Below are positions 3,010 through 45,108 of a stretch of 64,000 nucleotides of DNA, piece after piece. A program made the translations under genes and the position numbers. Origin of the DNA: Candidatus Daviesbacteria bacterium (GTDB lineage: Bacteria > Patescibacteriota > Microgenomatia > Daviesbacterales > UBA10151). Location: the NCBI GenBank assembly GCA_028715175.1, contig JAQUSJ010000002.1, positions 92,117-156,116 on the forward strand, read 5' to 3'. How positions within the stretch are numbered: the stretch's first letter is position 1; each line of letters begins with the position of its first letter. The notes under the pieces are model-generated. The model saw nothing but the letters and a program-made list of their open reading frames with translations, made no database searches and was not told where the DNA came from.

Positions 3010-3096
3010 CTATCAGTCATCAGTCTTCAGTCGTCAGATAAAAATAAAAAAGTCTGACAGCTGAAAGCTGATAGCGAAGCGGTACTGACGACTATT
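3007..3096. repeat. Family-A element, atpA|atpG junction; its TAG is the atpA stop codon
   Basis: tagctatcagtcatcagtcttcagtcgtcagat...gtctgacagctgaaagctgatagcgaagcggtactgacgactatt ATG. Confidence 0.8.
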
Positions 3097-3963: not shown

Positions 3964-5471
<1,508 letters not shown>

Positions 5472-5474
<3 letters not shown>

Positions 5475-5550
5475 CTTTCAGTCATCAGCCTTCAGCTTTC
5501 AGACTTTTCTGAATTGTCTGAAGACTGAGAGCTGATAGCTGACGACTACT
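5472..5550. repeat. Family-A element, atpD|atpC junction; its TAG is the atpD stop. About 95% identical to the 3961 copy
   Basis: tagctttcagtcatcagccttcagctttcagac-ttttctgaatt-gtctgaagactgagagctgatagctgacgactact ATG. Confidence 0.8.
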
Positions 5551-15000: not shown

Positions 15001-18000
15001 AATAGTAACGTTGGCATCGGGACACAGTCTCCTGTAGGAAAACTTCATCTGCTTGGTTCAGGGACTACTACTGCTCCCACCTTCATGACTCAAAACTCTA
15101 CGTCCACCAACTTTGGCCTGGCAGTTTTGGATAATGGCAATGTAGGTATTGGGACAACTAACCCAACAGAAAAATTATCAATACGAAGCTCTGCTGTTAG
15201 TACAAATGCATTTTCTTCAGTAGCTAATTCTGATGCATCTACATTTGTCTCTTTATATGGAGGGACTAATACTAATGAAGCTGCTATTATTTGGTCAAAT
15301 ACTTCCGGAAAAGCATTGCGTTTTGGAGTAGGAAATGATCCTTCTGCTTCAGGTGCATGGTCAGAAAAAATGCGGATTACAACCGCAGGCAATCTCGGTA
15401 TTGGCTTTACCTCTCCAGATAGACTACTTCAGATAGGGTCTGATATAAATATCACTGGTACTGCTGCTTCTATCTTAGGGGCTAATGGAACACAGTTTAG
15501 TATTACCGGCTCTACAGCCAATACCCTCCATAAAAAATTAACTCTGGGAATAGATACCACTGATAATTATGGTGTTATCCAGGCTGGAAATACAGACGGA
15601 ACAACATATAATTTAGCCCTAAATCCAGCCGGAGGCAATGTCGGGATAGGGACAACAGCGCTCAATTCTAAACTTCAAGTTGCATCTAGTTATAGCGGCA
15701 GCTATGGGGACAGTACAATTTATGGCTCATATTTTAACATGAACCTTAGTAGTGTTACCAATGCTACCAAAAATGGTTTATACAGCTTAGTAAACGGAAC
15801 TGTCGGCTATAATGGATACACCAATGCTATTTTAGGAGAAGTAAGCACAACAGGAACACAGAATAATGGAGTAATTGGCGTTTACGGATACTCTCACGCA
15901 ACCAGCAGTGAAGGTAATTATGGGCTTAAAGGTTATGCTAATAGTGGAGGATATACAAATGCCGGTATCTGGGCAGCAGTAGATGGAACAGGAGCCTCCT
16001 CAGGTGGTTATAATCCCAGTGCTCGTAACGGAAACTACGCTTTTTACGGCACAGCAACCACTACCGGAGCCGGTGCCACCAATGTAGGACTTTATGTCTC
16101 AGCCTCAGGAGCAGGTACGAATTACGCCGCCATTTTTGATCAAGGCAATGTCGGCATCGGGACGACAGCACCAGGATATAAATTATCGATCGCTGGCGAT
16201 GTAATTGTGGGCCAAACAACAGCAGGGACTTTGAGAATAAGTGAATCTGGTGATCCAACCAATAGAGATAGAGACTATGTATTTAATGGTTCCGCCAACT
16301 TACTAACTTTAAAACGTTCAGATGATGCGGGAGCTGGTTTCAATATTACAAATACAGGATCTATTGGCATCGGGACAGTGGGGCCAGCAATAAACCTAGC
16401 TATTGGTGATACCGATACCGGGTTAAAGTGGGTCTCTGACGGAATCATCACCATGTACGGCAACAATCAGGAACTTGCTCGGTTCGATGGGGATGGGACT
16501 CAAGGTGTGGAGCTTTGGATTAGCCAAGGAGCAAATACAGAACGCCTTTGTCATGCTGCCGGAGATGTAACAGCTCAAAGAGCCCTGATAGACGATTGTA
16601 GTGGTACCCCCGGAGATTATGCCGAAGAGTATGGTACCACAGATGTAAGCATCGAATCAGGGGATATTGTCATGGTCGACAAAACAAGATCAGCTCAGGA
16701 AATTGAAAAAGATGGGCTTAAAGGGTCAAAGGCCTGGATAGTCAAATCAAATAAATCATACCAGGATAGTATTATAGGCGTCATTTCTACTAACCCTAAT
16801 GAGGTAATTGGAAAGAATTTTGAGCCAGAAGAAAATCCCAGACCAGTATCTTTAAACGGTAGAGTTCCGGTTAAAGTTAGTACTGAAAACGGGCCTGTTG
16901 AGGTTGGAGATTATCTGACTTCATCTTCTGTTCCAGGAGTAAGTATGAAAGCGACTAAACCTGGTCCAGTTGTAGGTAAAGCATTGGAAGGCTATAACAA
17001 TCCTGATCCCACAGTAGTTGGCAAAATCTTAGTATTTATCAATATCTCATGGGTAGATCCCAACTATTCCCTGACAGCAGCAGCTACTTTGTCTTTGGAT
17101 GTAAACGGCAATCTCAATCTGACTTCACCATCGCTGACCTCTCCCTCTCTGACTCTTACTCCTACAGGCAACGTTGGCATTGGCACCTCCAGTCCGTCTG
17201 CAGCTTTGGATGTAGTGGGAAATGCTACCATCAGTGGCAGAATCTCCTCGGGGGTGGGCTTTGACTCCCCCGAGGTGAATACTCCGCTTTTGGACTTAGG
17301 CCCGGCCAGCATTGCTTCCTCCTCATCCGGCCTGGCTATCCAATTTGCAACTGACAACATGGGAGGTATACCAACTACATTCCAAATCAAGAACTCTTTA
17401 GGGCAAAACTTATTCCAGATTGACGCTTCAGGATCAGCAAAATTGGCCGGGACCATTACCACAGAAGCCGGAGCCTTTGATGTAGCAGAAGATTACAATG
17501 TAGCTGATGATTCAATTGAAGCAGGAGATGTAGTTAGTATAGACGATGGAAAATCGAGTATGGAAGATGGAATTTCGAAGATAGAAAATGGAAGTTTGAA
17601 TGAAGTAAGTCCATCTTCTACCATCAATCCTCAAAATACTACCCTCAATCCTCCATCATCTACCGTCGAAAAATCCTCAAAACCTTATGACAATAAGGTA
17701 GTCGGTATTATCTCCACCAAACCGGCAATAACTTTACAAAACAAACCAGGTTTGAATTCAGACAAACCTGGTTTGAGCACAAAACCGGTAGCTCTGGCCG
17801 GCAGAGTACCTGTGAAAGTTTCAACAGAAAACGGAATAATTGAAAAAGGAGATTATTTAACTTCCTCTTCAATTCCCGGGGTAGCAATGAAAGCTACCAG
17901 ACCTGGTCAAGTTATAGGAAAAGCATTAGAAGCTTTCAGCTGTCAGTCTTCAGCTATCAGCCGGACAGAAAATAGTCTGACAGCTGACAGCGAAGCGGTA

Positions 18001-19203
18001 CTGACGACTGAAAGCTGTCAAGGCAAAATCTTAATGTTTATTAATGTTGCTTTTGCCGACCCCGGCAACTTCTTTGCCTCTCTATCCTGGGATGAGCAAG
18101 GTAATCTGATAATTCCCAAGATCAAAACAAACTCATTAATGCTGGATCCGTCCGTTGCCTCTGCTTCCAGCCAATTAACTATTAACAATGAACAATTAAC
18201 TATTAACTCCGATCCCAACTTTATCTCCCCTGGTCCAAATCTGGCATCAAATACCAATAACTATATAGATTTATCAGGAGAGATAGCTTCTTTGGAGGAT
18301 AGAATCAAGAATCTAGAGTCTAGAGTCAAGGAACAGAATCAAGAAATCACTAGACTCTCGACTCTGGCAACTAGCAACTCCTCATCAGGTAATGTTGGAA
18401 TAGGAACAACTGAGCTTTCAGTCGTCAGCCCTCAGTCGTCAGACTCAGCTCAAATTGCTTCATCCTCTTCCAGTCTGACAGCTGATAGCCGACAGCTGAC
18501 ATCTGATTTGCACCTCACTCCTCCTGATATCCTGCTAACCACCGGTTCTGCCGTATTTACCAACTTGACTGTTAAATCAGAAGCCACTATGTCCGGACAA
18601 CTTAGCATCTATGACCTGTCAGTCTCAAATACTCTTAAGTCTTTGGGCAAAACTACTCTGGCCGACACCTTAATTGCCGGAGATCTGATGATAGACGGAA
18701 CAATGTCTATATCCGGAAACTCGATTAACTCCTCGGGGGTGGGCCTTGACTCCCCCGAGGTGAGTAACGGCACTCTATATCTGCAAAATTCTACCCTGGC
18801 CCAGGGCCTGGACATCTTCAATGGCAAAGTAACCATAGATCCCGCAGGAAATATAACAACTCAAGGCAAAGTTATTGCTTCTGAGGTTAAAACCAACAAG
18901 CTGACTATTTCCAATACACCAATAGCTACCTCCTCTGCGAACACACCAGGGGCGGGCTTTGACTCCCCTGGTGTGAACGGAGCCTCAATCGGCACAACAA
19001 CCTTACCTGCAGGAGCGACCGCTGTCACTATCCAGACTGCCCAAATAAGCGAGAGCGCTAAAGTCTTTATCACTCCAATAAGCCCGACAGACAAAGTTCT
19101 GTCTGTTACAGATATTAAACCGGGTACAAGCTTTGATGTTTCGATGCTTACCCCATCCCAGACAGATATTAAGTTTAACTGGTGGATAGTAGAAAGCAAA
19201 TAG
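6010..19203 (+). CDS. Giant (4397 aa) membrane-anchored surface protein: N-terminal MerR-type HTH, one TM helix, G-N-V-G-I-G-T repeat modules, LamG/ConA-like lectin domain, duplicated C-terminal modules
   Basis: Uninterrupted 13.2 kb ORF. IGQAAKLLGVSIDTLRRWEKAGKI...GGTRLY is MerR-like. TM helix LLVGSVFLSIITLLITSWITA. LamG-like GLVGYWDFSEGTGTKAYDKSPYGNDGTI...GKIDEPRIYTRALSADEV. More than 40 copies of NVGIGT. Confidence 0.8.
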   Translation: MSDPSTTKPLLKIGQAAKLLGVSIDTLRRWEKAGKITAIRTPGGTRLYHLSQLKKVNPASVEDFQAKSFTTEELLKKTEIQTVDDRQWKIGVEDRNWTIDDQSSTIHLQKSTFNPLSSIVNKLLVGSVFLSIITLLITSWITASYLTNPNQTQQFFKNNIASGLFSPFHKLAEVAVAEISPAQAKILGFIPPDEPPPLIISQQPNKSSAVLAVTSLLPFLEVNADTQINGSLFVRDSVNGLNMEATSSASSMALTSGDTTLTVTKDALLDQDVSTTAAPTFNTLNLSATKDQLVFQSGGPTGTLTWTPTATRTITLPDVTTTLVGKDTTDTLTNKSLSGSSNTLTNIPNSALTNSKVTVTAGTNLTGGGDISLGSSATIALKDSPSITGTLTVGGTTTLSGATTLSSTLAVTGAATFSSTITAGGVVKLTDGTAAAPALTFTSDTDTGLYRIGTNKIGLITAGTATSGITIDENGNVGIGTISPTSQLQTTGNVGIGGSASITSLLSANGSAAVTGSFCLNGDCKSSWTGIGGYTASNGITLSSTDFQLGGNLTRATGIDIAGQNFGFLGGNVGIGTTNPNYQLETTGNVGIGGSLTVTSTGVFGSIQDNGSLVVSGTSYLQGILGSTLTTTGNIGIGGSASIASNLNAGSLTVTGLSSLANVNTSAINASSLTTTGNITSQGTFLAANGTASAPGYSFTNLTNAGLWTNGDGLLLTTGGTNTSGITVTGAGNVGIGTTIPGATLEVAGSQTIGSASSISSILRLFGSIGYGEFRIGSSDIYNWRMMRENATTGRLDFIPSTGSLGSIPTLTLLTDGNVGIGTTSPNYKLDVVGQINSSTGLCIDGDCKTSWSGSAGYTASNGITLTGVDFQLGGSLTRATGIDIASQNFGFLGGNVGIGKSNPSYALDVLGTGYFSGFLGVGSSMNVAGNVGIGGTAAITSLTQANGGLTVTGASILQALTATDINAATLTATGNITSQGTFLAANGTASAPGYSFTNLTNAGLWTNGDGLLLTTGGTNTSGITVTGAGNIGIGTTSPAYKLDVVGQINSSTGLCINGDCKSSWTGSAGYTASNGITLSSVDFQLGGKLTRATGIDIASQNFGFLGGNVGIGTTSPQTALSLSSGQSATGISLYNTADETTNYERLRAYWSSNYAWIDTTKGGSGTSRGLIISGAGGLFLKSSTSVYFDAGTSFIVASTGITPSATITRATGYARFGDATAPTVSLEAANGFIVAAGNVGIGTTGPGAPLAINGVGKASTDDLLLVGQGGSGQIRVRHIEGKQSDSDNYGDLYLNYNSTGNVLLVRGGGNVGIGTISPTGKLIVSGGNVGIGVSTPLTALAVNGGGTIGWGLTGVAGPTNGLAVSGNVGIGTSSPSTFNLEVAGNIGPEADSTRDIGSPSRYYANIYAKNLITGTSGNVGYWTRTGTTLSPVTAGDNVSLTGSYSSTPATDTPAITLTGTNVATSNLAYFNAKNTSGTIFNIAYGAATTLTGDLVGTSIDLNDGKVTDSTHSITGFYTKLPTITADNATGIVSLKGLSVFFGTGSGINETGAGALTYTAADLSMPALTQTAGTLTANGVLITTPLSITTGGTANGVNISPTGVGAGTLNAINIGTISPLGGTENAIAVGTGWDNVLKVGSTTVINGSGVTQVAGGGTGIATYNVGDLLYASGATTFTNIGIGTSGQVLTTTAGVPIWGNVNGSSCTNCLVNNPTSTQNISPTGQTTTGLSVRQTSTGSPTQDIFNVTSSDGVTKYFYVDSSGNVSTGGVASQTLTLTPTSDTTALTLVGTNVATSKLAYFNAKNLQGTIFDISYGASATLRANQTLTGQNIDLSTNVSVGAGSTNPISVTGFALTMPAPTNTNTSGTNALKGLVITAGSGINQNGAGGTTTFSGVDVTIPPLTQTAGTLTGNGVLITTPSSITTGGTANGLNISPTGVGAGTLNGINIGNITAGSGTETAINVGTGWDYGLYSQTTNPSYFAGNVGIGTTTPGATLEVAGSQTIGSAASTSSILRLFGSVGYGELRIGNSDTYNWRMMRENQTTGRLDFIPSTGSLGSTPTLTLLTGGNIGIGFTSPNALLHIGGADQTTSAYGIKMGSDITLYRSATNTLKTDNNFVVGGSLTTAGLTNTSQFLAANGTAALPSYSFTNLTNAGLWTNGNGLLLTTNGSNTSGITVTGAGLVGIGTTAPVYALDIVGNSSLWQSVYGTDDGLVGYWDFSEGTGTKAYDKSPYGNDGTITAGAGGWTTGKYGNAYDFDGASDGSGTYIDVGNKITASNLSSLTIEAWLKRDAISPAAEDHIISNWTGTYHFGTTSNKFSIYLYNTTPTQGSVTGTTTVTNGVWYHVVTTYDGSKIRIYVNGVEENSTDFSGSLRSSSTTTKIGAGGSYPGAWASYLFNGKIDEPRIYTRALSADEVKAHYLRGSSNTAVTMNTSTTAGTVYGLRGVVTDTGIVTTGTDTAYGSRIDVTRTGATGGTLNTYGQYLNLTTDNAGGGTHNAYGLYVALDGNADNNYAAVFTGGNVGIGTTSPGAKLAVIGNVGIGTSAAGAALQVNGGGLFGWGTTSIAGPSNGLAVFGNVGIGTTSPTNPLTVIGNANIAGTLTTAGLTNTGQFLAANGTAALPSYSFSNLTNAGLWTNGNGLLLTTGGTNTSGITVTGAGNVGIGTTSPIGQLALGTYQGGTGSSIVAAYGKQLTLTGAFNAGYNTGSQIKLMINDYSNDGGDDIYPIYAEDENNGVDFYIRNQAGTRTAYFGGNVGIGATTPEAKLHVVGTLRTDSTITAYVNGIDNAPITMDYYNGRYRIESYKLATSGQIMSINETLHAVMWGNVGIGTQSPASKLHLLGSGATTAPTFMTQNSTSTNFGLAVLDNGNVGIGTTSPTSTFEVAASKTINFNSSPVSNLVLGSNMSAGNYNITSVNQLTINSTNGINRDVDNSYLNLMGGTNWSSGGGAAVLIAGKDLAGQTGNVRVYTPNAAGSSGLERLNIGGLATTANFIISNSNVGIGTQSPVGKLHLLGSGTTTAPTFMTQNSTSTNFGLAVLDNGNVGIGTTNPTEKLSIRSSAVSTNAFSSVANSDASTFVSLYGGTNTNEAAIIWSNTSGKALRFGVGNDPSASGAWSEKMRITTAGNLGIGFTSPDRLLQIGSDINITGTAASILGANGTQFSITGSTANTLHKKLTLGIDTTDNYGVIQAGNTDGTTYNLALNPAGGNVGIGTTALNSKLQVASSYSGSYGDSTIYGSYFNMNLSSVTNATKNGLYSLVNGTVGYNGYTNAILGEVSTTGTQNNGVIGVYGYSHATSSEGNYGLKGYANSGGYTNAGIWAAVDGTGASSGGYNPSARNGNYAFYGTATTTGAGATNVGLYVSASGAGTNYAAIFDQGNVGIGTTAPGYKLSIAGDVIVGQTTAGTLRISESGDPTNRDRDYVFNGSANLLTLKRSDDAGAGFNITNTGSIGIGTVGPAINLAIGDTDTGLKWVSDGIITMYGNNQELARFDGDGTQGVELWISQGANTERLCHAAGDVTAQRALIDDCSGTPGDYAEEYGTTDVSIESGDIVMVDKTRSAQEIEKDGLKGSKAWIVKSNKSYQDSIIGVISTNPNEVIGKNFEPEENPRPVSLNGRVPVKVSTENGPVEVGDYLTSSSVPGVSMKATKPGPVVGKALEGYNNPDPTVVGKILVFINISWVDPNYSLTAAATLSLDVNGNLNLTSPSLTSPSLTLTPTGNVGIGTSSPSAALDVVGNATISGRISSGVGFDSPEVNTPLLDLGPASIASSSSGLAIQFATDNMGGIPTTFQIKNSLGQNLFQIDASGSAKLAGTITTEAGAFDVAEDYNVADDSIEAGDVVSIDDGKSSMEDGISKIENGSLNEVSPSSTINPQNTTLNPPSSTVEKSSKPYDNKVVGIISTKPAITLQNKPGLNSDKPGLSTKPVALAGRVPVKVSTENGIIEKGDYLTSSSIPGVAMKATRPGQVIGKALEAFSCQSSAISRTENSLTADSEAVLTTESCQGKILMFINVAFADPGNFFASLSWDEQGNLIIPKIKTNSLMLDPSVASASSQLTINNEQLTINSDPNFISPGPNLASNTNNYIDLSGEIASLEDRIKNLESRVKEQNQEITRLSTLATSNSSSGNVGIGTTELSVVSPQSSDSAQIASSSSSLTADSRQLTSDLHLTPPDILLTTGSAVFTNLTVKSEATMSGQLSIYDLSVSNTLKSLGKTTLADTLIAGDLMIDGTMSISGNSINSSGVGLDSPEVSNGTLYLQNSTLAQGLDIFNGKVTIDPAGNITTQGKVIASEVKTNKLTISNTPIATSSANTPGAGFDSPGVNGASIGTTTLPAGATAVTIQTAQISESAKVFITPISPTDKVLSVTDIKPGTSFDVSMLTPSQTDIKFNWWIVESK
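17246..17277. repeat. Family-D perfect hairpin (CCTCGGGGGTGGGCTTTGACTCCCCCGAGGTG), in frame in the giant gene (SGVGFDSPEV)
   Basis: 9-10-bp GC-rich stem read directly. Confidence 0.75.
17931..18017. repeat. Family-A element inserted in frame inside the giant gene (encodes AFSCQSSAISRTENSLTADSEAVLTTESCQ)
   Basis: The paralogous module at 16980-17040 has GYNNPDPTVV at the equivalent position. Confidence 0.75.
18414..18506. repeat. Family-A element inserted in frame inside the giant gene (encodes ELSVVSPQSSDSAQIASSSSSLTADSRQLTSD)
   Basis: gagctttcagtcgtcagccctcagtcgtcagac...agtctgacagctgatagccgacagctgac. Confidence 0.7.
18731..18762. repeat. Family-D hairpin in frame in the giant gene (SGVGLDSPEV)
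   Basis: cctcgggggtgggccttgactcccccgaggtg. Confidence 0.75.
18947..18974. repeat. Family-D hairpin variant in frame in the giant gene (PGAGFDSPGV)
   Basis: ccaggggcgggctttgactcccctggtg. Confidence 0.6.
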
Positions 19204-19210
19204 GACCTAT

Positions 19211-19789
19211 ATGACAGATACGACCTATCCGACAGATCAAAAGAAAACGCACGGCGGTTACCGTAACCTCCGATCTTTCCAAACTGCCACCCTTATATAT
19301 GACCTGACTGTCGAATTTTGCGATCGTTATATGACCTATCCGACTAATAAGTCTTATAGGACCTATGATCAAATGGTGCAAGCGGCAAGGAGCGGCAGAC
19401 AAAACATTGCTGAAGGTTCCCAAGCCTCCGCCGTCTCTAAAAAATCAGAAATCAAACTGGTAGGAGTAGCCAGAGCTTCACTGGAAGAGCTACTTATAGA
19501 CTACGAGGATTTTTTAAGACAACGGTCTTTGCCTCTTTGGAGCAAAGGTTGCCCCCAGGCTCAAACTATTAGGAATCTGACGTATAAGACGGATAAGACT
19601 TATACGACCTATCAGACCTATCTTAAAAATCCTGAATCTGCAGCTAATTGCTTAATCTGCCTGATTCATCAAGCTAATTATCTTTTAGACAAACAACTTC
19701 AGGCTTTAGAAAAAGCCTTTATTACCCAAGGCGGTTATTCTGAAAATCTCTTTAAAGCCCGCCTGAAAAAGAGGGAATCAGACCGATGA
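19211..19789 (+). CDS. Four-helix-bundle protein (23S rRNA IVS-protein family) with repeat-derived N-terminus
   Basis: NIAEGSQAS...VARASLEELLIDYEDFL matches the NIAEG...IARGSL.EL motif of four-helix-bundle proteins. The N-terminal TYPT/TYKTDKTYTTYQTY peptides are encoded by gacctat/taagtc repeats. Confidence 0.5.
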   Translation: MTDTTYPTDQKKTHGGYRNLRSFQTATLIYDLTVEFCDRYMTYPTNKSYRTYDQMVQAARSGRQNIAEGSQASAVSKKSEIKLVGVARASLEELLIDYEDFLRQRSLPLWSKGCPQAQTIRNLTYKTDKTYTTYQTYLKNPESAANCLICLIHQANYLLDKQLQALEKAFITQGGYSENLFKARLKKRESDR

Positions 19790-33140: not shown

Positions 33141-33260
33141 TCCCGGCAGTGAGGTATTTTCACATAACCTTGCGGATATATTATCGTCCCCGCTGAAGTG
33201 TTTGACGACTGAGTTCGGGATGGGATCAGGTCGGACCACTTCGCTCAAATCACCGAGGGT
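33141..33260 (-). rRNA. rrf: 5S rRNA
   Basis: Reverse complement contains CCGAACTCAG...GGTCCGACCTGATCCCATCCCGAACTCAGTCG, aligning to bacterial 5S; about 120 nt. Confidence 0.6.
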
Positions 33261-33314: not shown

Positions 33315-33806
33315 TTATCTGCCTCCTTCATAATCATACCTGTACATAGTCCTGCCTGCTTCATTTACCGTACCAACATATTTTATCGTTTGATTTTGAT
33401 CATCTCTATTTTCTAAGCGAAATTCTATATTATAAGTATTATTGGCAAGCCTGAGATAGCAAAAATCAGGTCCGCCTGGAGATGAGGGTTCCAGTGGATC
33501 ATGAGGAAGATCTTTTATATGCACAGGCACTAAACCGGTAATATAGCTTGAGGTCCAACTGCTGCAACAGACCCAATTCGGGTCGTTTGGATACTTCCCA
33601 TTTATACTATTGTACGCTTCTAAAGCAATGTTCAAATCACGAAGACTAGACAAACGGTAAGTATCCCTGCTTTTGCTTTGGATGCCACCATAAACAATCA
33701 AACCAATTGTAGACAAAATAGCAATGATGGAGATAACTACCAGCAGTTCAACCATGGTAAAACCATGTTTACACCGGGTATAATCCAGATGAGCAGATTT
33801 ATTCAT
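33315..33806 (-). CDS. Type IV pilin (prepilin N-terminal methylation motif), located between 23S and 5S
   Basis: GFTMVELLVVISIIAILSTIGLIVY. Confidence 0.7.
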   Translation of the reverse strand: MNKSAHLDYTRCKHGFTMVELLVVISIIAILSTIGLIVYGGIQSKSRDTYRLSSLRDLNIALEAYNSINGKYPNDPNWVCCSSWTSSYITGLVPVHIKDLPHDPLEPSSPGGPDFCYLRLANNTYNIEFRLENRDDQNQTIKYVGTVNEAGRTMYRYDYEGGR

Positions 33807-34420
33807 GCCCTGAATATATCATTTACACCCTGAAATGTGAATACGGTCCGGCTTTGCCGGAGAAGGCTCAACTGCCCAACTTCGCTCAAAGAGCTATGTC
33901 GGGCAAAGCAAAAAAATCTCAACGTCGACCATTAGTATTGGTAGGCTAAATACCTTACAGCACTTACACCGCCAACCTATCTTCCGAGGTTAGTCGGAAC
34001 GACTATGCGTTAGCATAATCAACCTGGTAGTCTACCAGGGGTCTAAAAAGATACCTCATCTTGGGGTCTGCTTCGTGTTTAGATGCTTTCAGCACTTATC
34101 AGTTAGAAACGTAGCTACCCTGCGCTGCCACTGTAGTGACAACAGGCACACTAGAGGTTTCCTCATTTCGGTCCTCTCGTACTAGAAATAACTCCCCTCA
34201 AGTATCAAAACGCCCATACTGGATAGAGTCCGACATTATTGTAATCCGCCAACTGGCGGAGCTTGCTAGTTTCTTTTTCCTGCAAGCTCTCCGATTCGCA
34301 TCGGAGGTCCGACCATATCTTGCACGTTCATGTAAACTGAACGTACTCTAGCGTATGGCCTGTGAGGATTCTAGATTTCAGAAAACTCTGAATAACTCAG
34401 TTTGCCTGAGTATCAGATAA

Positions 34421-34789
34421 TCAGAAAATTCCTCCAGATTGCCAGTGAGTATGTAAAGAATTTATCCTTTTTGACAATACCTTATATCTTCCAGCTAAAT
34501 TTTTAGCTTCTAAAAATAGTTTAGGTTGTACTATTGCAATCATTCTTAGATGAGTTATCACCTCATCACTAGAACCTATCGCAATTTTTAGGAATCTTTT
34601 AAATTCTTTATCTGAAACCCGTTTAGCAAATCCTTCAGATATATTTGAAGCTATTGATTTACCTGATCGTTTAACTTGTAAAACCAAATCATATTCTGAT
34701 TTTGGCAATTTCTTGGTTAAATTATATAAGTCAGGTAATAGCTTCAGGGACTCTATGTAAACCTCCAAATCAGAAACATCTTTGATCAT
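34421..34789 (-). CDS. Four-helix-bundle protein (23S rRNA intervening-sequence protein family), encoded inside a 23S insertion near E. coli position ~2593
   Basis: LP..EYDLVLQVKRSGKSIASNISEGFAKRVSDKEFKRFLKIAIGSSDEVITHL matches the S23-ribosomal / four-helix-bundle consensus. Confidence 0.65.
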   Translation of the reverse strand: MIKDVSDLEVYIESLKLLPDLYNLTKKLPKSEYDLVLQVKRSGKSIASNISEGFAKRVSDKEFKRFLKIAIGSSDEVITHLRMIAIVQPKLFLEAKNLAGRYKVLSKRINSLHTHWQSGGIF

Positions 34790-35220
34790 TATTTTATCTT
34801 AACAGATCTTCTGACATTCTGAATTTCTGATCTACTGAGTCTTTCTGAGTAATTCCGAAGTCTAGTCTTTCCTGCTGATTATCTTGCTCCTTTATCCTAG
34901 GATGGATAACCATTTTCACTAGTATATAAATACTACACTAGTAGATTATCATTTACAAGACGTTCCAGCATATAGCTAGATTTTGTATCTCCATATTAGA
35001 TTTTTGACAAAAAGATTTTTCAAAATTCTCGAAGGTTAAAACGTCGATGGAGAAAGACAGTTCTTCTCTAAAAGCTGTCTTACGACGCTCTGAACCCAGC
35101 TCGCGTACCGCTTTAACTGGCGAACAGCCAGACCCTTCCCACCTACTTCAGCAGGAGGATGCGATGAGCCGACATCGAGGTGCCGAACCTTGCCGTCCTT
35201 GTGGACTGTAGGGCAAGACT

Positions 35221-35251
<31 letters not shown>

Positions 35252-35568
35252 ATAAGCCCTGACGCTCCCACGAGCCATCAGGGGATCATTAAGACCTACT
35301 TTCGTATTAGCTCGACATGTACGTCTCGCTATTAAGCACACTCTATACCTTTACGCTTGATGCGCGATTTCCTTACGCGCTAAGTGTACCTTAGTACCCC
35401 TCCGTTACTTTTTTGGAGGGAACCGCCCCAGTTAAACTGCCCGCCAGACCTTGTCCCAAACCCTGTTTTTATAAGGGTTAAGGTGAGACCTAAATTCAAA
35501 AAAGAGAGGTGTTTCATTGTTGCCGAAGCTCCCTCCTACGCTACACAATTTTAAATTTAAATCAGGGT

Positions 35569-35604
<36 letters not shown>

Positions 35605-35758
35605 AAGTATGGGAAGGCCGCATCTTCACAGCCATTGCAATTTCGCCGGGTCTATCCTCAAGACAGTCGCTAAGTCGTTCAACCTTTCGTGCGGGTCTGA
35701 ACTCACCAGACAAGGAACTTCGCTCAATTATGTTGCTGTGACAATCTAATCGTCACAT

Positions 35759-36289
35759 CTACACATCGCTGTGTAGTTCGGACTCTATCTTCTCTGGACC
35801 TTCCAGAGTTCGACGTATTAGTCTCTGAGGATTCTTAAGATCTCTAAAACTTTGTAAACCGTCTGCTGTTAAGTGTAGATTACTTAATTTCATCTCCACT
35901 GCTTTACAAAAAGTTTCAAAATCATTTTTCTTATAAGTTAGTAGTTTGTTTGCTTTAAAAAAAGGAATAATCTTTTCGCTTAAATCTTTCGTAGAACGAA
36001 CGCAATAGCGGTAGATATTTTCTTTATGGTTATCATAGCGTCTATTTACATAGATTGCTCCGCATCCAAAAAAGTCTTTGATGATTTGTAAACTATCTAA
36101 ACTTTTCTGGCCTTGTGTAACCACAAATTCAGGCATTACCTGAAATCCGCTTTTGGTTGTTCTATTTTTAAAGATAGAAACTGAAAAGCATCCTTCTCCA
36201 TCCACAAAACCAACTATCCAACTTGAGATCCTAAGTCTTTCCTGCTGATTGTCTGCACCGGATACATTTTTAGTTGAAATTTTAGGCAT
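35759..36289 (-). CDS. LAGLIDADG homing endonuclease, encoded in a 23S rRNA intron (site ~1931)
   Basis: WIVGFVDGEGCFSV LAGLIDADG-type motif; 176 aa; flanked by 23S exon sequence on both sides. Confidence 0.75.
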   Translation of the reverse strand: MPKISTKNVSGADNQQERLRISSWIVGFVDGEGCFSVSIFKNRTTKSGFQVMPEFVVTQGQKSLDSLQIIKDFFGCGAIYVNRRYDNHKENIYRYCVRSTKDLSEKIIPFFKANKLLTYKKNDFETFCKAVEMKLSNLHLTADGLQSFRDLKNPQRLIRRTLEGPEKIESELHSDV

Positions 36290-37206
36290 TAATCCAGTAT
36301 TACCCGAATCTTACCCAAATGTCAACTAGTACCGGATACGCCAGATTTTCCAGCATATAGTCAAATTCTAAAAACACACCACCATCTGAGGCTTTGAAAT
36401 TCCAAAACCATAGAACAGTTATAGTTACTGCTGCCGTTCACCAGATCTTAGGCCCCAGGCTCATTCCGCCTTACGGCGGAAGTCACTTGAGACAGTAAAT
36501 TACTGGCACTGGGCAGGTGTCAGCCCCTATACATCATCTTTCGATTTAGCAGGGACCTGTGTTTTTGTTAAACAGTCGCTTAGCGTCTTTTGTTGTAATC
36601 AGGCTTACGCCTGACAGGACATCTCCCAAAGGTTACGTCCAGCTTTCGTTGCCGAGTTCCTTAAGGATAGTTCTCCCGATCGCCTTTGTATACTCAACTC
36701 GCCCACCTGTGTCGGTTTACGGTACGGTTAAAATTATTCTCTTACACGAGTATTTTCCTGGAAACAGAAAAATATCTTGTTACCTCATCGTAACTCGATT
36801 TTGTAGTCCGACAGATTACTCCATCGGACTAAGTCGAAATCTCGACTTGGAAGCGGATTTACCAACCTCCACTACCTTGTTACTTAATCCCGAACATGTC
36901 GGGAAAGATTTTTCCCACTTCGTCAACCCTTGAAAGCTCCTTCGACCCCGATAAATCGGGACTCAGGACTTGTCAGAATAACTCTAATACAGGAATTTTA
37001 ACCTGTAATCCATCGGCTAATCCGCTTGTTGCGGGCTCACCTTAGGACCGATTAACCCCCGACCGATTAACGTTGTCGGGGAAACCTTGGGCATTCGGCG
37101 ATAACGTTTCTCACGTTAATACGCTACTCATACCGGCATTCTCACTTCTATACAGTCCACCTCGCCTTACGGCGGGGATTCACTCCATATAGAACGCTCC
37201 TCTACC

Positions 37207-37312
37207 GCACTCACGCTCCGCGTGAGAGTTATTAGTTATGAGTTCATAGTTCATAGAAAATTACTACGAACTACCAACTACGAACTACCAACTCTCGTGC
37301 GAAGCACGAGTA
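37207..37312 (-). repeat. 23S IVS cassette 1: CACGCTCCGCGTGAGAG ... CTCTCGTGCGAAGCACGAG flanks around a TTCATAG/CGAACTAC repeat hairpin
   Basis: The same 17-19-nt flanks as IVS cassette 2; inserted in 23S. Confidence 0.6.
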
Positions 37313-37924
37313 CCCAAAGCTTCGGTAGCAAGTTTAGCCCCGATTAATTGTCGGCGCCTTCACCCGTAGTAGACCAGTGAGCTGTTACGCTATCTTTAAA
37401 AGGTGGCTGCTTCTAAGCCAACTTCCTGGCTGTCTAAGGATAAAGACTACCTTTAACACTTAACTTGCATTTAGGGACCTTAGCTGTTGGTCTGGGTTGT
37501 TTCCCTTGAGACCGCTCCGCTTAGCCGGATCGGACTGACTCTGAAGTTAACATTGCAGTATTCGGAGTTTGATTGGTCCCGATGACTTGCGTCACCGAGG
37601 ACCATCCAGTGCTCTACCCCTGCAATTAAAACTTTCAGGCTATACCTAGATATATTTCGAGGAGAACCAGCTATCTCCGAGTTCGTTAGGCATATCACCT
37701 CTAACCACATCTCATCCCAAGTTATTGATACAACAACGGGTTCGGGCCTCCTCCGGCATTTCTGCCGGGTTCACCCTGGACATGGATAGCTCACTCGGTT
37801 TCGGGTCTATCGCATCCTTAATAAAATCGGGCTATTAACCCTCGCTTTCACTACGCTTTCGCCACAGAATGGCTTAAGCAAAAAGGATACGGTAACTCAC
37901 CGGTTCATTCTTCAATAGGCACGC

Positions 37925-38042
37925 GATCCTCACGCTCCGCGTGAGAGTCTCCAGCTATCAGCTATCAGCTATCAGACAAGCGCAAAATGCGTTTTGTTTT
38001 GTCTGACGACTGACAGCTGACGACTGAAAGCTCTCGTGCGAA
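37925..38042 (-). repeat. 23S IVS cassette 2: same CACGCTCCGCGTGAGAG ... CTCTCGTGCGAAGCACGAG flanks, carrying a full family-A heptad palindromic element
   Basis: ccagctatcagctatcagctatcagac...gtctgacgactgacagctgacgactgaaagct lies between the flanks. Confidence 0.65.
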
Positions 38043-38106
38043 GCACGAGTTTCACTGCTTGTCAACATACGGTTTCAGGTACTATTTCACTGAGCGTTTC
38101 GCTCTT

Positions 38107-38146
<40 letters not shown>

Positions 38147-38812
38147 CGAAAGTATATTTAGCCTTAGCAAGTGGTCTTGCTGGATTCACACAGGATTACA
38201 CGTGTCCTGTGTTACTCAGGGATCGGATTGTGGTAGCTTAAATTTCGATTACGGGACTATCACCCTCTGTGGTGTCGCTTTCCAGCGACTTCTTCTATCC
38301 TCGCTACATCACGTATATCCGCCCTACAACCTCCGGCTTGCGCCGGATTTAGGCTGTTCCCTTTTCGCTCGCCGCTACTTGGGGAATAAACTATTGTTCT
38401 CTTTTCCTAGCCTTACTTAGATGTTTCAGTTCGGGCTGTACCCTCCGTTAACCTATGAATTCAGTTAACAGTTCCGGCAAAGCCGGATGGTTTTCCTATT
38501 CGGAAATCTTCGGATCAAAGCTTTTTGGCAGCTCCCCGAAGCTTATCGCAGCCTAATACGTCCTTCATCGGTACTTTCGACCAAGGCATCCACCGTATGC
38601 ATTATTGTTGAGTATTTTTTGGCTTGTAATCCCGCTTTTAGCGGGATAAATTGGCCTTCTTAATTTATCCGTATTCACATTTCAAAGTGCAAAAGTAGTG
38701 CTGAGCATGTTCGTGCGTTGCACTCACTTGAGTTCATAGAATCCTCTACCAACTACAAGTGAGCAAAGCTCACGAACTAATAACTCATAACTACGAAGCG
38801 AAGCTTCGTAAG

Positions 38813-38885
38813 TGGACCGTGGCGGGCTCGAACCGCCTACCTCTTCATTGCAAATGAAGTGTTCTACCAGCTGAACTAACGGCCC
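38813..38885 (-). tRNA. tRNA-Ala (TGC)
   Basis: Acceptor GGGCCGT/ACGGTCC with G3:U70; anticodon loop TTTGCAA; T-arm GGCGGTTCGAGCCCGCC. Directly upstream of 23S. Confidence 0.7.
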
Positions 38886-39120
38886 AATTTAGTTCATGGT
38901 ACGGCTCTCGCCTTCGGTTCACAGTTCACAGAAAAATCATATTACTATGAACTAATAACTATGAACTAATAACTTGTTAAAAAGAGGTATACAACGCTGG
39001 AAATCCGCCAGCCGGCGGATCCAGCTGGGAGGAATTATGTATTTAGTGCGTTGCTTCTCATTATGTGTGAATTAATCACCATCTGGAAGTTTATCAAAAA
39101 CGGGACTGCAATGTCAACAC

Positions 39121-40143
39121 TTACGCTTTGCCCACATTAATTACCTGTTCAATCAATCTATTTGAATACCCCCATTCATTATCATACCAGGCAAAAACTT
39201 TCACAAAATCCCCATCCACTACCTGGGTTAATCCCAAATCAACTATGGCTGACTCGCTCCTTCCCACAATATCGGCAGAAACTATTGGCTCATCAGTTAC
39301 AGCCATAATATTTTTTAGTTCTCCCTGACTTGCTTGCCTTAAAGCTTCATTAACTTCCTCCACCGTAACTTTTTTCTTGAGGAGAAAGGTAATATCGGAA
39401 ATTGACCCGACAATAATCGGCACCCTCATAGACATTCCGTCAAATAATCCTTTTAAAGCAGGGATTACCTCGGTTGTGGCAACTGCCGCACCTGTTGAGG
39501 TGGGAATCATATTCACTGCAGCAGCCCTGGCTCTTCTTAAATCTTTATGGGGCCCGTCCTGTAAAGACTGATCCTGGGTATAAGCATGGATTGTAGTCAT
39601 ATAGGCTTTTGCTATACCAAATTTATTATTGATTACATCAACAACAGGAGCAATGCAATTTGTGGTACAGGAGGCATTATTAACCAGTGTTTCTCCTTTA
39701 TAATCCTGGGCATTCACCCCGATCAAAAGTGTTTTTACTCCTTCGCCTTTGGCCGGAGCAGACAAAACCACTTTTTTGGCACCAGCCAAAAGATGCTGCT
39801 TCATACCCTCGGCATCAGTAAATTTGCCTGTTGACTCAATCACCACATCTACGTTTAGATCTTTCCATGGTAACCTGGCTGGTTCTTTTTCTTGATATAC
39901 TGTGTAGGGATTTTGATCTACTATGATATGTCCTGAGCCTGTCGAAGAATCATCTGATGAAACTTCGTGATCCCATACCCCATAAGCGCTGTCATATTTT
40001 AAAAGATGAGCTAAAGTGGCCGGAGAAGTTAAATCATTTATACCAACAATTTCAATTTCGTCGCTATGTTTTTCTATAGCAACCTTAAAAGCGCTTCTTC
40101 CTATTCTTCCAAAACCATTAACGGCAACACGTAGCATAATCAA
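39121..40143 (-). CDS. gap: Glyceraldehyde-3-phosphate dehydrogenase
   Basis: NGFGRIGR N-terminus; active site SCTTNC; WYDNEWGYS C-terminus. Confidence 0.9.
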   Translation of the reverse strand: MIMLRVAVNGFGRIGRSAFKVAIEKHSDEIEIVGINDLTSPATLAHLLKYDSAYGVWDHEVSSDDSSTGSGHIIVDQNPYTVYQEKEPARLPWKDLNVDVVIESTGKFTDAEGMKQHLLAGAKKVVLSAPAKGEGVKTLLIGVNAQDYKGETLVNNASCTTNCIAPVVDVINNKFGIAKAYMTTIHAYTQDQSLQDGPHKDLRRARAAAVNMIPTSTGAAVATTEVIPALKGLFDGMSMRVPIIVGSISDITFLLKKKVTVEEVNEALRQASQGELKNIMAVTDEPIVSADIVGRSESAIVDLGLTQVVDGDFVKVFAWYDNEWGYSNRLIEQVINVGKA

Positions 40144-40146
40144 ATA

Positions 40147-41229
40147 TTACGACAAAGCTTCTATTGTTGGCAAGGTCCCATCTGTTAAAAATTTTAACAT
40201 CGCCCCTCCGCCGGTTGAAATGAATCTGCTCGGCTTATCAGCCTTCGCATCTTCGCGCTCGCTATCGCTCGCACTAAAAGCTTTTTCTTCTACTTCAGAA
40301 AGTAATCCGTACTCTCTTAAGGCAGAAATAGTATCCCCACCTCCAATAATAACTTGTGCGCCTGAATCTAAAACCATTCGGGCTATCTTTTTAGTAGCAT
40401 CATTTTTGGGATCCTCAAACTTACCCAAGGGCCCGTTCCAGACTATCATCCGGCTTTGCCGGATAAGCCCGGCCCAGGCTGAAGTGGTTTGCGGAGCAAT
40501 ATCAAATCCATCCTCATTTAACATCCCAACCAGCACATTTTTGGGCAAACTTAAATTCTCTGTTCTTATCTCACTAATCAGCTTGCCACCCACCAAAACA
40601 GCGTCTGCTTTTTCTGCCAGAACTTTGATGACAGACAGTTTATCCGCAACTTTGGCTCCTCCCATGATTGCCACAAAAGGTTTTTTGGATCCGCCAGTTG
40701 GCGGATTCCTGACACCAGCTAAAACCCTAACTTCTTCTGCAAACCTTAAACCAGCATAGTGAGGTAAAAGTGTAGGTAAAATAGTGGTGGAAACAGCAGG
40801 TCTGTAAGAAGCAAATGCTTCATTAACAAACACATCACCCATATTTGCCAGTTCTTTAGCAAAACTTAAATCCCCGGCTTCCTCTCTGGGATCGAATCTT
40901 AAATTTTCCAGTAATTTTAGCTTCCCACTCGTCAAGTGGGAACGTAAACCTTGATCCTCAAACCACTGTTTGATAGGAGCTACTGATAGCTCCTCAACCG
41001 CTTTGCCTTCTGGTCTGCCAATATGCCCCATGACAATTGTCTCTTGAGCATTTTCCAAACACATTTTTAATGTTGGCAAGCCTGCTCTTAACCTAAAATC
41101 TTCAAGCACCACAAGATTCTGGTCTGATGACTGATGACTGATGACTGATGACTTTCCTATCGGGACATCTATATCTAAACGAAGTAAGACTTTTTTGCCG
41201 GAAACGAACTGAGGACTAATGATTTGCAT
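40147..41229 (-). CDS. pgk: Phosphoglycerate kinase (with short in-frame repeat-derived insertion VISHQSSDQ)
   Basis: RLDIDVP...; GGAKVADKL; ISTGGGAMLKFL. Confidence 0.9.
   Translation of the reverse strand: MQIISPQFVSGKKVLLRLDIDVPIGKSSVISHQSSDQNLVVLEDFRLRAGLPTLKMCLENAQETIVMGHIGRPEGKAVEELSVAPIKQWFEDQGLRSHLTSGKLKLLENLRFDPREEAGDLSFAKELANMGDVFVNEAFASYRPAVSTTILPTLLPHYAGLRFAEEVRVLAGVRNPPTGGSKKPFVAIMGGAKVADKLSVIKVLAEKADAVLVGGKLISEIRTENLSLPKNVLVGMLNEDGFDIAPQTTSAWAGLIRQSRMIVWNGPLGKFEDPKNDATKKIARMVLDSGAQVIIGGGDTISALREYGLLSEVEEKAFSASDSEREDAKADKPSRFISTGGGAMLKFLTDGTLPTIEALS
41121..41162. repeat. Family-A half-element (GACTGAT heptads x4) in frame in pgk
   Basis: gtctgatgactgatgactgatgactgatgac, encoding VISHQSSDQ. 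Confidence 0.6.
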
Positions 41230-41269
41230 AAAGTTATCTTATCATAATAAACCACATCAACTTCTTAAT

Positions 41270-41698
41270 TTATTCATCAAAAAAATTCTGGCCTGTTTTT
41301 AGGGCTTGCAGATAAGAACGAGTTGTTTCAAAAAGAGGCTTTGGTAAATTATCAAATTCATACCATTGCCATCCTTCTATTTTTGCAGGTTCTAAAACTT
41401 TAGGGATACCTGATTTCCACTCCGCTGTCAGACCAATATCAACGTAGTGTTTACCTTTGTACCTTTTGAGATTATAAAGACGCAAGAATTTGACATTTTT
41501 AATCTTAATCCCTGCTTCCTCCAGACATTCTCTTTTGGCGCATTCAATTATTGATTCCCCAAATTCCAAATGTCCACCCGGAAAGGCATATTCTCCTGCT
41601 CCGTGCGAACCTGTTCTTTTACCGAGCAAGACTTTACCGTTTTTAAAAACTAACACTCCAATTCCAACTTTTACTTGAGAATTATTTTTAAAAACCAT
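41270..41698 (-). CDS. Nudix hydrolase
   Basis: Nudix box GGHLEFGESIIECAKRECLEEAGI. Confidence 0.75.
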   Translation of the reverse strand: MVFKNNSQVKVGIGVLVFKNGKVLLGKRTGSHGAGEYAFPGGHLEFGESIIECAKRECLEEAGIKIKNVKFLRLYNLKRYKGKHYVDIGLTAEWKSGIPKVLEPAKIEGWQWYEFDNLPKPLFETTRSYLQALKTGQNFFDE

Positions 41699-42485: not shown

Positions 42486-44800
<2,315 letters not shown>

Positions 44801-45030
44801 AAAAAAAATTGACAAAATCAATTTTTTAGTTCGTAGTACGTCCGCTTTCGGCGGACTTTAGTTCATAGTTAGTAGAATTTCTACGAACTACGAACTCATA
44901 ACTCCGAACTAATTAACCCACCACTCTTTTAGGTATTAAAAATCCGGCTATCGCCGGACTAATTTTACCGAAGAGTAGTATAAAAAAATCTTCGGTTGTT
45001 AATGTGCATTTTTGAGTAGTATTATTTAGT

Positions 45031-45108
45031 AGCTGTCAGTCTTCAGCTATCAGCTTTCAGACTTTCTTGCGATTGTCTGACGACTGACGACTTAGTACTG
45101 ACGACTAT
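45031..45108. repeat. Family-A element between the 45190 gene end and the 16S 5' leader
   Basis: tagctgtcagtcttcagctatcagctttcagac-tttcttgcgatt-gtctgacgactgacgacttagtactgacgactattc. Confidence 0.8.

Follow-up and report, generated by a model that had tools for sequence, protein, structure and literature searches.

The window analysed here is a 64,000-nucleotide (nt) stretch of contig JAQUSJ010000002.1 (assembly GCA_028715175.1, positions 92,117 to 156,116), from an uncultured bacterium of groundwater type. Rfam models located a bacterial ribosomal RNA (rRNA) operon on its minus strand, in which the 23S rRNA gene holds two hairpin-forming inserts, here called cassettes. The operon also contains tRNA-Ala(UGC), tRNA-Ile and tRNA-Cys, the last adjoining tRNA-Ile after the 16S rRNA gene (Table 1). 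Judged by its protein matches, the organism is a Candidatus Daviesbacteria bacterium of the Candidate Phyla Radiation (CPR). The glyceraldehyde-3-phosphate dehydrogenase (GAPDH) encoded in the operon spacer was 100% identical to a protein from a Candidatus Daviesbacteria metagenome-assembled genome (MAG), and we assign the organism to the CPR because the next 100 or more GAPDH matches (70-90% identity) also came exclusively from Daviesbacteria or Patescibacteria.

Table 1 Coordinates of the rRNA genes, cassettes, repeat hairpins and large inserts in the window
Feature	Position	Strand	Description
5S rRNA	33141-33257	-	Rfam
Host 23S rRNA gene	33930..38616	-	3' end approximate; Rfam, E. coli alignment
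~840-nt 23S insert	34235-35074	-	At E. coli ~2593; PF05635 'IVS protein' open reading frame instead of a homing endonuclease
23S rRNA, Rfam match	35022-38616	-	Rfam
682-nt 23S insert	35725-36406	-	At E. coli 1931; LAGLIDADG_1 open reading frame 35759-36289
Helix-45 cassette, 101 nt	37210..37310	-	Clamp + family-B heptad palindrome + clamp; replaces tip of 23S helix 45
3' clamp arm of helix-45 cassette	37210..37228	-	CUCUCACGCGGAGCGUGAG (forward strand CTCACGCTCCGCGTGAGAG); exact repeat
5' clamp arm of helix-45 cassette	37292..37310	-	CUCGUGCUUCGCACGAGAG (forward strand CTCTCGTGCGAAGCACGAG); exact repeat
Helix-25 cassette, 121 nt	37929..38049	-	Clamp + family-A heptad palindrome + clamp; replaces terminal hairpin of 23S helix 25
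3' clamp arm of helix-25 cassette	37929..37947	-	CUCUCACGCGGAGCGUGAG (forward strand CTCACGCTCCGCGTGAGAG); exact repeat
Helix-25 cassette interior	37948..38030	-	CUUUCAG/UCGUCAG/CUGUCAG heptads, loop with ACGCAUUUUGCG, CUGAUAG x3
5' clamp arm of helix-25 cassette	38031..38049	-	CUCGUGCUUCGCACGAGAG (forward strand CTCTCGTGCGAAGCACGAG); exact repeat
Family-B heptad hairpins flanking tRNA-Ala(UGC)	38735..38990	-	Spacer before 23S; array search
16S rRNA, in pieces	42499-44798	-	Rfam
Family-B heptad hairpin, 16S leader	44820..44930	-	GC hairpin GUCCGC-CGAAA-GCGGAC inside 3' arm
Family-A heptad palindrome, rRNA operon leader	45036..45106	-	Downstream of TTGACA-N17-TTAAAA promoter-like site, read by eye

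Two 23S rRNA inserts share an identical clamp

An earlier reading of the letters alone (the original prediction) had proposed that identical flanks enclose inserts in two different 23S helices, and had suggested alignment to related 23S genes to identify them. Alignment with mafft against E. coli rrlH placed the 121-nt insert after E. coli position 538, in helix 25, and the 101-nt insert at E. coli 1163-1179, in helix 45. The Rfam alignment likewise put the longer insert inside helix 25, at model positions ~575-590, and short native hairpins in relatives (Table 2) agree with both assignments. The base of the native helix is kept on both sides of each cassette, and the flanking 23S sequence is continuous and colinear with E. 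coli 23S.

Both 19-nt flanks, together called the clamp, occur as two exact copies each, with none expected in shuffled sequence, and no third copy of either was present in the 64-kb window at up to three mismatches. The flank strings and the two loci had thus been recognised correctly, but the second cassette ends at 38049 rather than 38042, and the reading direction needed correction: the rRNA lies on the minus strand, so that the RNA reads 5'-CUCGUGCUUCGCACGAGAG...CUCUCACGCGGAGCGUGAG-3'. Between the arms the two cassettes differ, having only the clamp in common and interiors that are 54% identical. The helix-25 interior is a typical member of the family-A heptad (7-nt repeat) palindromes described below, as had been proposed, and its loop, ACGCATTTTGCGCTTGTCTGA, occurs in the window only in the cassette itself. 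The helix-45 interior is built of GUUGGUA/GUUCGUA ... UAUGAAC heptads.

RNA folding gave a single long stem for each cassette (-50 to -71 kcal/mol, z = -7.2 to -9.3), equalled by 0 of 200 shuffled sequences. The helix-25 cassette with its flanks reached -71 kcal/mol (z = -7.8) and the helix-45 cassette -50.4 kcal/mol (z = -9.3). In the minimum-energy fold the flanks pair with each other through 12 bp including G.U pairs, a 2x2 AC/AC internal loop and a 5-bp GAGAG/CUCUC helix. Each arm alone could fold into a perfect 7-bp stem capped by a 3-nt loop, so the claim that each flank is a small hairpin describes a fold open to the single arm but not the minimum-energy fold. Five transitions separate the 3' arm from the exact reverse complement of the 5' arm, which leaves a 14/19 inverted-repeat match in DNA. 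These transitions yield G.U pairs on the rRNA strand only, and therefore this strand folds 13 kcal/mol better. The cassettes were among the most stable 110-nt segments of the 64 kb, at -56.0 and -51.0 kcal/mol on the rRNA strand and -43.0 and -37.7 kcal/mol on the other.

Six distinct clamp types, including those from the relatives described below, were available for comparison. Extended arm-to-arm pairing was retained in 91% of cells, and all three 'loop' positions covary (UUC/GGA, UUC/GAA, GGA/UUC, UCU/AGG, AUG/UGU and AUA/UGU), with a score reached by 0 of 500 shuffles. The two-hairpin fold was paired in 99% of cells, with 3 doubly changed pairs. Covariation appears to support both the extended stem and the two hairpins, which is suggestive rather than conclusive. 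The clamp can be read as a dyad-symmetric duplex, which suggests a symmetric site for a homodimeric enzyme such as ribonuclease III (RNase III); alternatively, it would fit end hairpins read in single-stranded nucleic acid.

The cassette occupies different helices in related genomes

The genome and metagenome collections were each scanned once with the 19-mers, which gave 31 loci; further relatives were taken from contigs encoding GAPDH homologues, and sites were mapped by anchoring on conserved 23S sequence. Among 12 related 23S loci, the cassette was present, absent or at one of the two sites (Table 2). At cassette sites the native terminal hairpin was replaced rather than split, and the junctions recurred in independent assemblies (NCBI MAGs, JGI contigs, ENA and a 1.02-Mb contig).

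Table 2 State of the two sites, and other clamp positions, in related loci. Native, short native hairpin (helix 25: L014, L021, L029, L033-L039; helix 45: L019, L033, L035, L039)
Locus	Helix 25	Helix 45	Other sites
L005, L010	cassette	not covered	
L019	cassette	native	
L014, L021	native	cassette	
L029 (1.02-Mb contig)	native	cassette	
L031	cassette	not covered	clamp variant at helix 9; cassette in domain-I hairpin near nt 275
L033	native	native	
L035	native	native	
L039	native	native	
L034, L037	native	not covered	
L004			clamp variants: 16S helix 6 region, 23S ~nt 290, spacer after 16S
L017			clamp variants: 16S helix 6 region and a second 16S site

Cassettes at different helices proved to be nearly the same sequence. 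The interior of the window's helix-25 cassette was 92% identical to the helix-45 interior of L014 and L021. The helix-45 interior of L029 matched those of L031 at 95% (nt-275 hairpin) and 92% (helix 25), and the two L031 copies were 94% identical to each other. Over the whole cassette the window and L014 were 94% identical, whereas the 23S backbones were only 84-86% identical. The closest relatives, L033 (95% 23S identity) and L035 (91%), have no cassette at either site. These results indicate that the cassette behaves as a portable unit whose presence is out of step with phylogeny; as far as the alignments can be read, the pattern requires movement of the unit between sites and between genomes. 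The modular, portable cassette of the original prediction is thereby borne out: depending on the genome, one cassette is found in helix 25, in helix 45 or in a domain-I hairpin, and variants of the clamp occur at helix 9, two 16S sites and the spacer.

Three of the loci (L005, L019 and L004) are CPR rRNA contigs binned in MAGs labelled Gammaproteobacteria or anammox Planctomycetota. For L004 the label 'Gammaproteobacteria' is taken to be a binning error because its 16S is nearer to the window's (80% identity) than to that of E. coli (70%). A 22-mer, GTGCTGAGAGCAATCGAAGTAC, was observed as a second shared tip module (L033 12064-12085 and L039 14189-14210); it makes up the tip of helix 25 in one Daviesbacteria genome and that of helix 45 in the other.

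Cassette interiors belong to repeat families of the same genome

The family-A unit, (NNNTCAG)n-loop-(CTGANNN)n, formed 24 arrays of three or more copies in the window, where shuffled sequences gave 0.03. Most stand directly after stop codons, and they occupy every spacer between the window's three ATP-synthase genes. The family-B unit has period 7, NNNAACT / AGTTNNN (palindrome GUUNNUA ... UANNAAC), and formed five arrays of at least 3 copies, with 0 in shuffles. None lies outside the rRNA operon: two form the arms of the helix-45 cassette, two flank tRNA-Ala(UGC) and the fifth is in the 16S leader. The repeat units had been predicted to recur around this tRNA and in the 16S leader, and they do. 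Comparable arrays stand at the tRNA-Ala spacer position in the relatives L029, L034 and L035.

Family-A palindromes were observed at 947-1006, 3013-3071, 3967-4031 and 5478-5542 (+), in every spacer around the ATP-synthase genes, which Pfam assigned to the alpha/beta, gamma and alpha/beta families and which we presume to form one operon. If so, these palindromes would not be strong terminators, and they may be processing or stabilising hairpins. Several heptad arrays and palindromes (17936-18506) lie near the 3' end of a 4397-amino-acid open reading frame (ORF; 6010-19203, +), which may encode a giant surface protein tolerating such arrays or may not be a single gene. TCATCAG occurs four times at 41124-41153 (-), at the very start of the phosphoglycerate kinase ORF. 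A relative's protein is 23 amino acids shorter, so that the true start codon probably follows the array at a short distance; if it does, the array resembles the TAACTGA repeats of Beggiatoaceae.

Clamp sequences occur beside heptad palindromes outside rRNA genes

Clamp 17- to 19-mers were also found beside heptad-repeat palindromes outside rRNA, in five Halomonas species, two Verrucomicrobiota contigs and two kinds of metagenome contig (L024; L030/L032), where the 17-mer folds as a stand-alone hairpin. About 4 chance matches per 19-mer are expected in 596 Gb, by an estimate that supposes equal base use. Matches at eight loci (L002, L007, L009, L016, L018, L023, L026 and L028) were set aside as apparent chance, and neither clamp arm matched viral contigs.

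In the Halomonas genomes (L003, L006, L008, L011 and L015) the exact 19-mer adjoins a heptad palindrome of CTNNAAG units, with CTGGAAG repeated 11 times in the palindrome of H. elongata. Read by eye, the Halomonas clamp stands directly upstream of the -35 box (TTGACG) of a tRNA operon promoter. The 3'-arm hairpin CTCACGC-GGA-GCGTGAG was seen as inverted doublets in four metagenome contigs (L020, L022, L025 and L027). In L025 and L027 the doublets are framed by GTAG...CTAC, in the manner of REPINs, the hairpin-forming doublets of repetitive extragenic palindromic (REP) sequences.

The cassettes are probably intervening sequences

We consider it probable, at roughly 60%, that the two inserts are 23S rRNA intervening sequences (IVSs) of the classical kind in Candidatus Daviesbacteria. 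Each replaces the terminal hairpin of a surface helix (25 or 45) with a near-perfect hairpin of 100-120 nt composed of two modules: a GC-rich clamp of two quasi-palindromic 17- to 19-nt arms, and an exchangeable set of inverted 7-nt tandem repeats around a short loop. In the precursor rRNA the stem of more than 45 bp would be cut by RNase III, probably within or beside the dyad-symmetric clamp, near-perfect duplexes of this length being standard substrates of the enzyme. The cassette would then be discarded, and the 23S pieces would be held together by the remaining stem and the ribosome structure, as in Salmonella, Leptospira and Coxiella.

[quoted passage not shown] The cassettes share the replacement of a loop at such sites, the stem of complementary ends and the sporadic presence. 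RNase III cutting is proposed because characterised IVSs at these sites behave in this way (PMC4990558). Removal is proposed because a CPR survey, citing Brown et al. 2015, reports CPR rRNA insertions to be removed from transcripts; the survey already suspects short non-intron insertions at the corresponding CPR sites of being RNase III-type IVSs (PMC11270868). Excision of the cassettes by RNase III is, on these analogies, plausible.

Several points weigh against this interpretation. Excision, the cleavage sites and 23S fragmentation are all argued by analogy, and no obvious RNase III gene was seen in the window, although no search was aimed at one. The examined junctions show neither a target-site duplication nor a common target motif, and no candidate mobility enzyme was found; 'portable' describes a pattern and not a mechanism. 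The clamp statistics come from only six distinct types in related lineages, and several loci come from MAGs with clearly wrong labels, their taxonomy being taken from rRNA identity only. Intergenic family-A palindromes also lack a consistent transcribed-strand bias (the transcribed strand folds better in 5 of 11), which makes an RNA role for every heptad hairpin less likely. The tie that had been drawn between a genome-wide hairpin element and rRNA processing therefore holds in part: the cassette interiors come from the same heptad families, but the intergenic copies carry no clamp and show no such bias.

It is possible, at odds well short of even, that the cassette is instead a miniature hairpin-ended mobile element acting at the DNA level, of the REPIN or IS200/IS605-derived type. 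An enzyme supplied in trans would recognise the end hairpins in single-stranded DNA, and landing in rRNA with removal by RNase III would make the insertion tolerable without being what the element is for. Compensatory changes do preserve in each arm a 7-bp hairpin with a 3-nt loop that is perfect or nearly so. The stand-alone 17-mer hairpins beside heptad palindromes outside rRNA (Halomonas, Verrucomicrobiota and two metagenome contigs), the inverted doublets of the 3' arm with their GTAG...CTAC frames in L025 and L027, and a sporadic distribution discordant with phylogeny point the same way. The missing target-site duplication and common target sequence count against such an element too, however, and neither a transposase nor a gene for a REP-associated tyrosine transposase (RAYT) was present among the window ORFs scanned. 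The clamp in the window is confined to the 23S gene, and the loops of the two arms are mutually complementary, which hairpin recognition does not require.

We think it unlikely, though still worth weighing, that the cassettes are stable expansion segments, long surface hairpins that persist uncut in the mature 23S rRNA. Both host helices are surface-exposed and variable and tolerate length changes, the native helix base is intact on either side of each cassette, and no sequence feature proves cleavage. Against retention stands the near-perfect duplex of more than 45 bp, a standard substrate of RNase III. The closest relatives have no cassettes, and the cassettes therefore add no conserved ribosomal function. 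Moreover, RNase III removes every characterised insertion of such size and shape at these sites (PMC4990558), and transcripts are reported to lack CPR rRNA insertions (PMC11270868, citing Brown et al. 2015).

Improbable in our view is that the likeness between helices 25 and 45 arose without movement, by convergent selection for a processing stem or by gene conversion within a genome. The 94% identity of the two L031 copies is what homogenisation predicts, and the interiors use a heptad family common at the same locus. Convergence, however, cannot yield 92-95% identity of interior and loop across helices and genomes whose rRNA backbones are ~85% identical, conversion still needs a first copy at the second site, and the window's own pair has nothing but the clamp in common. 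That the inserts are assembly or binning artefacts, chimeric joins at a repeat, is highly improbable: the sequences do come from metagenome assemblies and several bin labels are wrong, but identical junctions occur in independent NCBI, JGI and ENA assemblies including the 1.02-Mb contig, and the flanking rRNA is continuous and colinear with E. coli 23S.

Protein genes and large inserts in the rRNA operon

Protein genes lie within the rRNA operon at 39121-41698 (-), where NUDIX, phosphoglycerate kinase and GAPDH genes stand between tRNA-Ile and tRNA-Ala, and a pilin-like (N_methyl) ORF is located between 23S and 5S (33315-33806, -). The relative L033 has the same arrangement. The 16S gene contains an insert of ~850 nt between E. 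coli 1081 and 1176 (42837-43776, -) with a LAGLIDADG_2 ORF at 43040-43636.

No Rfam family matched the cassettes or the two large 23S inserts at E <= 1, apart from the chance-level matches given below, and no group I model matched the 682-nt insert. The ~840-nt insert encodes, at 34421-34789 (-), a protein of family PF05635 (Pfam E = 3.6e-21), the Avd-like '23S rRNA IVS protein' (PMC10053308). This ORF is bracketed by inverted NNNNUCAG / CUGA-type arms of 8-nt repeats (34350..34850), with period-8 arrays at 34809-34850. Homologous PF05635 ORFs in L033 and L004 also lie within inverted heptad arrays, making 3 of 3 CPR loci. A second PF05635-like ORF was noted outside the rRNA operon (19211-19789, +; 33.1 bits, just below the cut-off of 33.8). 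Repeats of GACCTAT / ATAGGTC type (~9 nt) lie before, inside and after it, and two copies of GACAGAT, the heptamer of the Coxiella IVS, stand at the start of the ORF.

The PF05635 loci drawn from plasmid records were similar. Period-7/8 arrays stood beside the ORF in all 11 (on both sides in 10), mostly purine-rich upstream and complementary downstream. Seven of these loci are cyanobacterial; the full set comes from Stanieria, two Nostoc, Geminocystis, Pseudanabaena, Picosynechococcus, Oscillatoria, Azospirillum, Gemmatirosa, Riemerella and Treponema. In Riemerella and Treponema the sole period-7/8 arrays in 50 kb were those 10-80 nt from the PF05635 ORF, and in the Azospirillum helix-45 IVS the ORF lies between GAGGACG x4 and GTCTTCT x4 arrays. 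In total, 14 loci in six phyla combine a PF05635 ORF with 7- to 8-nt tandem arrays, and we found no published description of PF05635 genes flanked by such arrays. Two array-flanked PF05635 genes were seen inside CRISPR-Cas operons, at cas6/cas4 in Pseudanabaena (L049) and at cas10/cmr3 in Picosynechococcus (L050).

We tentatively propose, as a possibility and not as the expected outcome, that rRNA IVSs, PF05635 genes and inverted 7- to 8-nt arrays are parts of one widespread, unrecognised class of selfish hairpin element. Its full form would consist of a PF05635 ORF with purine-rich arrays before it and complementary arrays after it; this form would ride inside host transcripts (rRNA, or operons such as cas and atp) and be released by RNase III. 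The two clamped cassettes and other heptad palindromes without an ORF, perhaps with many intergenic heptamer arrays among them, would be miniature derivatives. The small GC end hairpins may be shared recognition modules, a role suggested because they recur beside heptad palindromes in several phyla.

Significance

IVSs have been known since 1990, and their origin and mobility are open questions (PMC4990558). Short IVS-like inserts at these CPR sites are already published (PMC11270868). New, as far as we have found, are the shared clamp, the heptad-built interiors, the occurrence of one cassette at several helices and in both rRNAs, and the discordance with phylogeny. The cassette offers a defined unit with clear filled and empty sites for testing how IVSs spread, and its dyad-symmetric clamp is a direct candidate target for RNase III or another hairpin-binding enzyme. 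CPR rRNA genes gain 100-350 nt at conserved sites from such cassettes, which can mislead rRNA gene callers, primer design and assembly. If the link between PF05635 and the arrays is true, it would place a very common 'four helix bundle' gene family in a genomic context for the first time and give an origin for some unexplained bacterial heptamer repeats.

Relation to known insertions and repeats

The closest counterparts are the classical 23S IVSs at helices 25 and 45 of Salmonella, Proteus/Providencia, Helicobacter, Campylobacter and Yersinia, which occupy the same two sites (PMC4990558, PMC2801512). Like the cassettes, they are stem-loops of ~100 nt that replace a terminal loop, have complementary ends and occur sporadically among close relatives (PMC4990558, PMC2801512). 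Unlike them, the cassettes have stems of 7-nt tandem repeats, and those in helices 25 and 45 carry identical 19+19-nt clamps. One whole cassette can also lie at different helices, including 16S, for which we found no counterpart reported among classical IVSs in the papers searched.

The helix-45 IVSs of Coxiella burnetii and Leptospira combine a long terminal stem with a PF05635 / S23p ORF, whereas the cassettes are a long stem without an ORF. In Coxiella, tandem GACAGAT heptamers of variable copy number lie on the 5' side before the PF05635 ORF, and RNase III cuts at the first repeat (PMC4990558). The window's 23S likewise has a PF05635 ORF between inverted arms, but in a separate insert at E. 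coli ~2593. The short non-intron insertions at sites 23IS2 and 23IS4 of CPR 23S rRNA genes (Tsurumaki et al. 2024, PMC11270868) come from the same organism group and the same sites. The available part of that survey describes no shared clamp, heptad arms, copies at several helices or link to genome-wide palindromes, and, with a cut-off set at 100 bp or more, the survey would not pick up shorter copies, among them the 89-nt cassette of L005.

Group I and group II introns were rejected: covariance models gave no intron family match at E <= 1 over 33900-38100, and 100-120 nt is too small. At the same threshold the cassettes matched only Rfam models of plant microRNA precursors, at chance level. 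The two 19-nt arms (14/19) are terminal inverted repeats like those of miniature inverted-repeat transposable elements, an assignment set aside for the lack of a target-site duplication and for the restriction of the clamp, in the 64-kb window, to the two 23S cassettes. Short GC-rich hairpins with 7-bp stems, and inverted doublets that form a longer hairpin, recall RAYT-mobilised REP sequences and REPINs. The cassette clamps differ from these in having no adjacent GTAG, in being confined to rRNA in the window and in enclosing a heptad palindrome rather than a short spacer between the hairpins. Membership was rejected on the missing GTAG at the clamp borders and on the lack of a RAYT/Y1 transposase among the window ORFs scanned.

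The heptad families themselves resemble the short tandemly repeated repetitive (STRR) sequences of cyanobacteria and the TAACTGA repeats of Beggiatoaceae, which are abundant, mostly intergenic tandem arrays of period 7 (PMC4679880), as are the window's 24 family-A and 5 family-B arrays (0.03 and 0 in shuffles). In TAACTGA arrays, which stand ahead of start codons, the repeats are described as direct but for a single indirect one (PMC4679880). The window arrays, in contrast, have unit sequences that differ from STRR and TAACTGA, and they are inverted pairs that form hairpins, placed mostly just after stop codons and inside rRNA.

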